NCBI GenBank assembly: GCA_963514005.1
Contig: OY740795.1
Location: forward strand, 44,020,001 to 44,084,000
Source: Raja brachyura
Lineage: Eukaryota
Direction of reading: 5' to 3'
DNA length: 64,000 bases
The notes beneath the pieces were generated by a model. That model saw only the letters and a program-made list of their open reading frames with translations, had not been told where the DNA came from and did no database searches. The translations under genes were made by a program, and so were the position numbers. How positions within the stretch are numbered: the stretch's first letter is position 1; each line of letters begins with the position of its first letter. Shown one piece after another: positions 18,167 through 18,565 of this stretch.

Positions 18167-18565
18167 AAGAAGGAACTGCAGATGCTGGAACAATCGAAGG
18201 TAGACAAAAATGTTGGAGAAGCGGGTGAGGCAGCATCTATGGAGCGAAGGAATGGGTGACGTTTCGGGTCGAGACCATTCTTCAGACTGATGAGGGGATG
18301 GGGGGGTGGGGGGGGGGGTGCAGGAAGAAGAAAGGAAGAGACAGAGTCAGTGGGCTGTGGGAGAGCTGGGAAGGGGAGGGGAAGGAGGGAGAAAGCAAGA
18401 ACTACCTGAAATTGGAGAAGTCAATGTTCATACCGCTGGGGGTGTAAACTACCCAAGCAAAATATGAGATGCTGCTCCTCCAATGTATGGTGGGACTCAC
18501 TCTGCCCATGGAGGAGGCCCAGGACAGAAAAGTCGGATTCGGAATGGGAGGGGGAATTGAAGTGC
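18167..18565 (-). mobile_element. Penelope-like element 3' fragment: GIY-YIG endonuclease C-terminus plus pLTR/UTR with hammerhead motif
   Basis: Minus strand 18564->18402 reads [42 protein letters not shown], then a +1 frameshift, then SGMNIDFSNFR*, resembling Penelope GIY-YIG C-termini. It is followed by the same terminal sequence found in the short repeats. Confidence 0.85.
18254..18288 (-). ncRNA. Putative minimal type I hammerhead ribozyme (Penelope-associated)
   Basis: Minus strand AGU-CUGAAGA-A-UGGUCUCGACCC-GAAA-CGUC-ACCC: both core boxes, a stem II hairpin with one mismatch, palindromic ACGU stem III and a GUC cleavage triplet. Confidence 0.6.

Follow-up and report, generated by a model that had tools for sequence, protein, structure and literature searches.

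A decayed Penelope-like minimal hammerhead motif, very probably inert, in an intron of a COE/EBF gene

The window analysed here, a stretch of 64,000 nucleotides in total, carries on its minus strand a minimal type I hammerhead motif (min-HHR; 18285-18258) within an intron of a COE/EBF gene. The motif is a decayed min-HHR of a Penelope-like element (PLE), which has lost the closing pair G10.1-C11.1 and is very probably inert in the EBF3 pre-mRNA. An earlier note on this DNA had regarded co-transcriptional cleavage of the EBF3 intron as conceivable. However, the window copy is a poor candidate for such an activity, as G10.1 is lost, misfolding is predicted, the window offers no intact partner and intact sense copies are not depleted in COE genes. 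Nor is this copy special, as it is one of 120,432 genomic matches to the hammerhead core pattern.

Results

The earlier note had recognized a minimal type I hammerhead of a PLE with an ACGU palindrome, and direct reading of the minus strand from 18285 to 18254 supports this assignment: CTGAAGA-A-TGGTCTCGACCC-GAAA-CG-TC-ACCC (Table 1). The sequences that define min-HHRs are present, namely C3-U4-G5-A6-N7-G8-A9, G12-A13-A14-A15.1 and U16.1-H17 as well as the unpaired base between A9 and position 10.1, here an A at 18278. The GAAA box at 18265-18262 is followed by CG and then by the UC of the cut site at 18259-18258, and the predicted cleavage point lies between 18258 and 18257. Positions 18262-18259 (15.1-16.1) provide the palindrome ACGU for the dimer helix III, which forms in the dimer only. 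The substrate half, ACGUC-AC, is intact. In helix I, pairing is possible for U-A and G-C alone, as anticipated by the ~2 bp proposed earlier, and has a predicted probability of <0.01. The mismatch previously listed for stem II does exist; however, it affects the conserved closing pair of the 12-nt stem-loop II (18277-18266), where the exchange of G10.1 for U replaces G10.1-C11.1 by U.C. The earlier note had called the motif the most intact one in the window; no other copy there combines the two boxes with GUC. In a covariance-model scan, the nine Rfam matches in the window at E ≤ 10 include no hammerhead family.

Table 1. Coordinates of the hammerhead motif, its insertion and neighbouring features in the window.
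Feature	Position	Strand	Evidence
COE/EBF exon (end of DNA-binding domain)	18715..18859	-	Pfam COE1_DBD, E 4e-15; PDB COE1
Target-site duplication, 5' copy, 11 bp	18565..18575	-	Identical 11-mer at both ends
5'-truncated Penelope-like element insertion, 401 bp	18164..18564	-	Similarity to genomic siblings; target-site duplication
Frameshifted C-terminal remnant of RT-GIY-YIG ORF	18402..18564	-	Stop 18404-18402
CAGT, common to subfamilies with unlike pyrimidine-rich upstream sequence; 5' ends of copies cluster here	18286..18289	-	
Core box C3-A9 (CUGAAGA), intact	18279..18285	-	Direct sequence reading
Extra A (18278) and stem II (4 bp, 4-nt loop); G10.1 to U at 18277, U.C mismatch with C11.1 at 18266	18266..18278	-	
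G12-A13-A14-A15.1, palindromic ACGU, U16.1-C17	18258..18265	-	min-HHR definition in PMC4209133
Target-site duplication, 3' copy, 11 bp	18153..18163	-	Identical 11-mer at both ends
Nearest other copy, folding back as a palindrome, at 2.1 kb upstream in the transcript; without C3, has AUGU	20297..20497	.	

Sequence comparison identifies the surrounding insertion as a 5'-truncated EN+ Penelope-like element, which is of Neptune/Nematis type by the linker criterion (PMC8557442). It comprises an endonuclease tail, a pyrimidine-rich spacer, the min-HHR and a 3' end of ~95 nt. As a single copy between target-site duplications, it lacks the tandem units with complete hammerheads that characterize non-LTR retrozymes. 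The stop codon of the ORF remnant is located 116 nt upstream of the motif (~115 nt by the earlier estimate), and one extra C near 18438 breaks the frame of what had been taken, correctly, for a frameshifted GIY-YIG-like C-terminus. The remnant itself yields no Pfam match and contains no GIY-YIG motif; its peptide is identical in 36 of 42 residues to the endonuclease C-terminus of a longer sibling (L061), which exceeds the cut-off for Pfam GIY-YIG (E 5.9e-5). An RVT_1 match in the longer relatives stays under the cut-off (18.5 vs 29.6 bits). The combination that marks EN+ PLEs, a single reading unit holding both RT and a GIY-YIG at its C-terminus, is found in L061 and L062, whereas the window copy represents the tail only. 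Upon extension of five siblings, three reached the RT domain and all five had a CX4CX2C linker or a GIY-YIG region behind. The linker, present in L061-L063 and L065, conforms to the Neptune pattern CX2-5CxxC, which is shared with Nematis. The 40 best-scoring other places (the best 40 of 7,056 candidates) are 87-90% identical to the insertion. Junction-spanning contigs place the insertion at the same site in runs from three organisms, whose flanks are nearly identical (~99%); hence, the shared insertion is no indication of selection.

With respect to the host gene, the motif lies in sense orientation and C3 is found 430 nt into the intron, both in agreement with the earlier note. The COE exon, which we take to be exon 8, ends at 18715 and the next exon starts at 11613, leaving a 7.1-kb intron in which the motif precedes the next exon by 6.6 kb. 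The genome has four COE loci. MGMT-family exons are located ~200 kb downstream of the locus in the window, on the opposite strand; as the MGMT-EBF3 neighbourhood presumably marks EBF3, the host gene fits EBF3. Two possible donors, at 18742 and 18715, lie 27 nt apart; nine residues following the DNA-binding domain would be included or left out, depending on the donor. Moreover, a donor-like site that overlaps the stop codon of the element, and a pyrimidine tract with CAG at its end (18405-18287, minus strand), are possible cryptic splice sites in sense orientation in the host intron.

The U at position 10.1 is a sporadic variant. Among 29 siblings, this position is G in 25, A in two, T in one and a gap in one. 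At the genome level, the U10.1 form has 332 exact matches as compared to 50,608 for the family 28-mer with G, that is 0.65% of both together, and 4,149 of 4,723 family RNA reads have G at this position. The window copy differs from the sibling majority at 21 of 391 positions (5.4%), close to the sibling mean of 4.8%. Sibling-like divergence and the lost G10.1 do not match the purifying selection expected for host co-option. In the predicted minimum free energy structure of a 43-nt construct (-7.9 kcal/mol), the G5-A9 box and U10.1 pair with the 3' flank, i.e. the exchange at 10.1 is predicted to extend a competing hairpin. Accordingly, the lower three pairs of stem II have a predicted probability of 0.00 in the window copy vs 0.12 in a G10.1 sibling; however, intact siblings are also predicted to misfold, so that the folding model discriminates weakly. 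In predicted dimer folds, the active arrangement was not formed. A literature search for kinetics of G10.1 mutants returned no figure; conservation suggests that the loss would come at a cost to activity. The pair G10.1-C11.1 is listed as a min-HHR hallmark (PMC4209133), and exactly this pair is retained in engineered miniribozymes (PMC544870). According to the established dimer model, the core of one copy cleaves the GUC of the other (PMC4209133); thus, the cut site of the window copy is not protected by its own G10.1 defect.

An intact partner for such a dimer is absent from the 64-kb window, where the remaining copies lack C3 or the cut site. The end of this element also occurs in fold-back or inverted pairs, at 20297-20497, 24650-24835, 26387-26600 and 53763-54042. 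Matches to miRNA-like Rfam families at 20.3 kb, below the gathering thresholds, were discarded as they reflect the hairpin of the fold-back copy. A young short copy of another subfamily (52831-52917, minus strand) has an intact G10.1, starts after C3-G5 and is devoid of the first box. Another small repeat family, with no relation to the Penelope end, is found at 17013-17131, 30806-30895 and 31872-31989.

The family is present in very high copy number. In the genome, 120,432 matches to the core pattern face 239 for the reversed-pattern control, which is far more than chance would give and amounts to approximately one per 22 kb, a density at which one intact-core copy per 64 kb is as predicted. 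Profile searching of 662 kb from the four COE genes, including the window, yielded 416 matches. A search for diverged hammerheads with an AGCU palindrome gave 167 matches vs 38 in the control. Two recurring families among them resembled covarying ribozymes; upon translation they proved to be retroelement coding sequence, presumably of LINEs, one lying in frame across the YADD motif and the other antisense to the coding sequence (L157-L176). They were therefore rejected as chance mimics and left out of the covariation analysis, and they are a warning for descriptor-based counts. A literature search, with supplements outside its scope, found no paper on the hammerhead family of this genome.

Preferential conservation of the motif relative to its flanks, which the earlier note had set as a condition, is observed between subfamilies. 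Of 236 copies that span the motif, 219 had enough 3' flank for clustering, and 39-100 stayed unclustered depending on the threshold. Among subfamily majorities, 0-2 of 28 columns vary in the motif as compared to 19-22 of 64 in the 3' flank (Fisher p 0.009 and 0.0005); the clusters were defined by the 3' flank alone, a procedure that tilts this contrast towards variation in the flank. From its conservation over the flank, the family motif is probably a true ribozyme belonging to the element. Stem II is invariant in the three to four subfamily majorities; a single one-sided change, at 1.1, and no compensatory change were seen. None of the subfamily changes seen in or beside the motif conflicts with a ribozyme: GUC is changed to GUU, a loop C to U, and A1.1, which faces U2.1, to G. 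At the level of individual copies, differences amount to 62/1,580 (3.9%) in the non-CpG core, 86/1,127 (7.6%) in stem II and 451/8,850 (5.1%) in the flank, figures that are biased since copies had to align over the core. G12, which is part of a CpG, differs in 21% of the copies. Decay of the copies thus appears roughly neutral, with the core not spared.

Intact cores are not depleted from the sense strand in the 662 kb in and around the four COE genes: 40 are sense and 30 antisense (p 0.28), a small sample in which strands were compared within genes and fold-back copies counted on both strands. Strict motifs in the same 662 kb gave 23 vs 20 (p 0.76), and the intact fraction in the four COE genes is alike on both strands (39/131 vs 29/105, p 0.77). 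The COE locus on C1 (L066-L083) has 16 sense vs 6 antisense intact cores, which is probably due to chance; the other loci are even or reversed.

The ends of the copies provide information on how the element may be copied. In 113 of 371 copies (fold-back copies included) the 5' end falls at -5 to 0 relative to C3, whereas nine begin around the cut site, at +24 to +29, and none of these at +27 or +28. At least 30 bases upstream of C3 are present in 40 of the 371 copies. Clusters of 3' ends are found near +93 and from +117 onwards. The pile of 5' ends just before C3, together with the common CAGT, points to an RNA start at the hammerhead. By its sequence, the CAGT site is likely a transcription start, initiator-like by a consensus that we assume to apply, or a 3' splice site. 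For the latter, the joined form has one genomic match (C14:1564352-1564373), and the predicted splice joint is absent among the 15 joints listed of 250. G precedes AGT in 3,188 of 6,473 non-C cases (49%), as compared to 30% expected by composition and 41.5% before any AGT in the sample; duplication-resolved junctions gave a mixed answer on an extra, cap-derived G. In the active element, the RNA would likely begin with the motif, which would cleave in dimeric form only and probably with the help of the element's own protein. The window copy likely arose when uncut RNA was copied by target-primed reverse transcription from a point ~95 nt 3' of the GUC, and would then have decayed neutrally. Since it includes sequence upstream of the putative start, its template would have been a read-through or tandem transcript. 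For the EBF3 transcript, the prediction is that the motif forms the competing hairpin and is spliced out together with the intron.

At the RNA level, the family is abundant in a polyA run of raw reads, with 11,006 reads from 6% of the run. Both unique flanks of the window copy have zero depth, and 157 of the 11,006 reads match at ≥99%, so that this run is uninformative on the window copy. For the family, depth does not drop at the GUC, and no pile of read starts or ends was listed, which is a weak test given the fragmented polyA library.

Discussion

Among published min-HHRs, monomers are inactive and cleavage by dimers is weak (PMC4209133); cleavage by the hammerhead of the green anole element PAc requires the element's protein (PMC11167929). 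For these reasons, the window copy is unlikely to cut the EBF3 pre-mRNA. Other readings deserve consideration. It is unlikely, though it carries more weight than the remaining alternatives, that the family motif is kept for a promoter, protein-binding or coding constraint at the RNA start and is no working ribozyme even in the active element. The invariance of stem II among subfamilies, with no compensatory change, would suit this idea, as would the 2-bp helix I and 5' ends that mark the start of the motif rather than the cut site. However, the family motif has every min-HHR hallmark, its subfamily changes are compatible with a ribozyme, and the anole homologue does cleave, being rescued by C3G/G8C (PMC11167929). 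Such a constraint would be compatible with a decayed, inert window copy.

Cleavage of the window GUC in trans at a low rate and without effect on EBF3, by the intact core of another transcript, appears improbable. Pairing would involve ACGU and the 2-bp helix I and would probably be chaperoned by the element's protein, in keeping with the protein-assisted anole hammerhead (PMC11167929). The intact substrate half, the at least 50,608 exact family motifs and the abundance of the family in polyA RNA speak for it. However, the two RNAs would be joined by ~6 bp only, the active arrangement is missing from the predicted dimer folds, the 5' ends of copies are not piled at the cut site and the polyA run, a weak test owing to library fragmentation, shows no pile of ends. 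We consider it a long shot that, upon expression of the element, host pre-mRNAs are cut in trans at GUCs, that of EBF3 included, by intact cores with the element's protein as chaperone. If true, the 50,000 or more exact copies, of which many lie sense in introns, would be transcriptome-wide hammerhead substrates, making the retrotransposon a general intron-nicking system and giving the unexplained PLE hammerheads a host-facing effect. Most improbable of all is co-option of the window copy as an intronic ribozyme tuning EBF3 splicing, akin to what has been proposed for CPEB3. A host role has reportedly also been proposed for ultraconserved intronic hammerheads of amniotes. What can be put forward for co-option is the sense orientation at a distance of 6.6 kb from the next exon, an insertion shared by three organisms and a precedent with a half-life of 2-3 min (PMC10274809); yet the three organisms are ~99% identical in the flanks, divergence is at the neutral level, G10.1 is lost, helices I and III are not stable and the copy is one among 120,432 core matches.

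Taken together, the window copy, being a decayed repeat, is itself of little weight. The family motif is a further case of the already known PLE min-HHR kind, and the family constitutes a very large genomic record of Penelope-like copying; judging from its 5' ends, the RNA seems to begin at the hammerhead and to be copied without prior cleavage, which agrees with in vitro results for the anole element. Hosts appear to tolerate intact cores on the sense strand of introns. In work reviewed in PMC2995048, slow hammerhead cleavage within an intron left splicing intact, whereas a fast ribozyme blocked it. The EBF3 intron, even if slowly cut, may likewise still splice.

Comparison with known systems

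Min-HHRs in pseudo-LTRs (pLTRs) of metazoan PLEs were described by Cervera and De la Pena 2014 (PMC4209133). The motif studied here shares with them the CUGANGA and GAAA boxes, the extra base between 9 and 10.1 and a palindromic 15.2-16.2 without loop 3, and they too are mostly single dispersed motifs on truncated elements (PMC4209133). It differs from them in that the window copy lacks G10.1-C11.1, and in a stem II of 4-5 bp. With 2 bp that could pair, helix I is like that of the D. virilis variant, whereas 4-5 bp are usual (PMC4209133). The load of 50,608 exact 28-mers and 120,432 core matches is far above the ~4,000 and ~9,000 motifs given for coelacanth and X. tropicalis, respectively, although the methods differ (PMC4209133).

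In PAc, the green anole's Poseidon element (Frangieh et al. 2024, PMC11167929), the hammerhead is also located at the pLTR/ORF junction. Reverse transcription of PAc begins 111-118 nt into the ORF, insertion mainly uses uncut RNA as its substrate, and no RNA-seq ends are reported at the cleavage site (PMC11167929). Similarly, insertions here end ~90-120 nt from the motif start, matching such an internal start of reverse transcription. Unlike PAc, the relatives in this genome have a CX4CX2C linker before the endonuclease, as in the Neptune/Nematis type. Neptune-type EN+ elements (Craig et al. 2021, PMC8557442) likewise combine RT, a zinc-finger-like linker and GIY-YIG at the C-terminus, and show heavy 5' truncation and inverted copies adjoining the 5' end; this likeness refers to linker and domain order rather than to RT phylogeny.

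A 2026 preprint (10.64898/2026.07.22.740005) reports tandem retrozymes in one cartilaginous fish and their depletion from Xenopus introns, whereas our sample compares strands within genes rather than introns with intergenic regions. Finally, the CPEB3 ribozyme is also a sense-strand ribozyme motif in the intron of a regulatory gene (PMC10274809). However, it self-cleaves with a half-life of minutes, whereas the window copy is a repeat with a broken closing pair that forms no helix III on its own.
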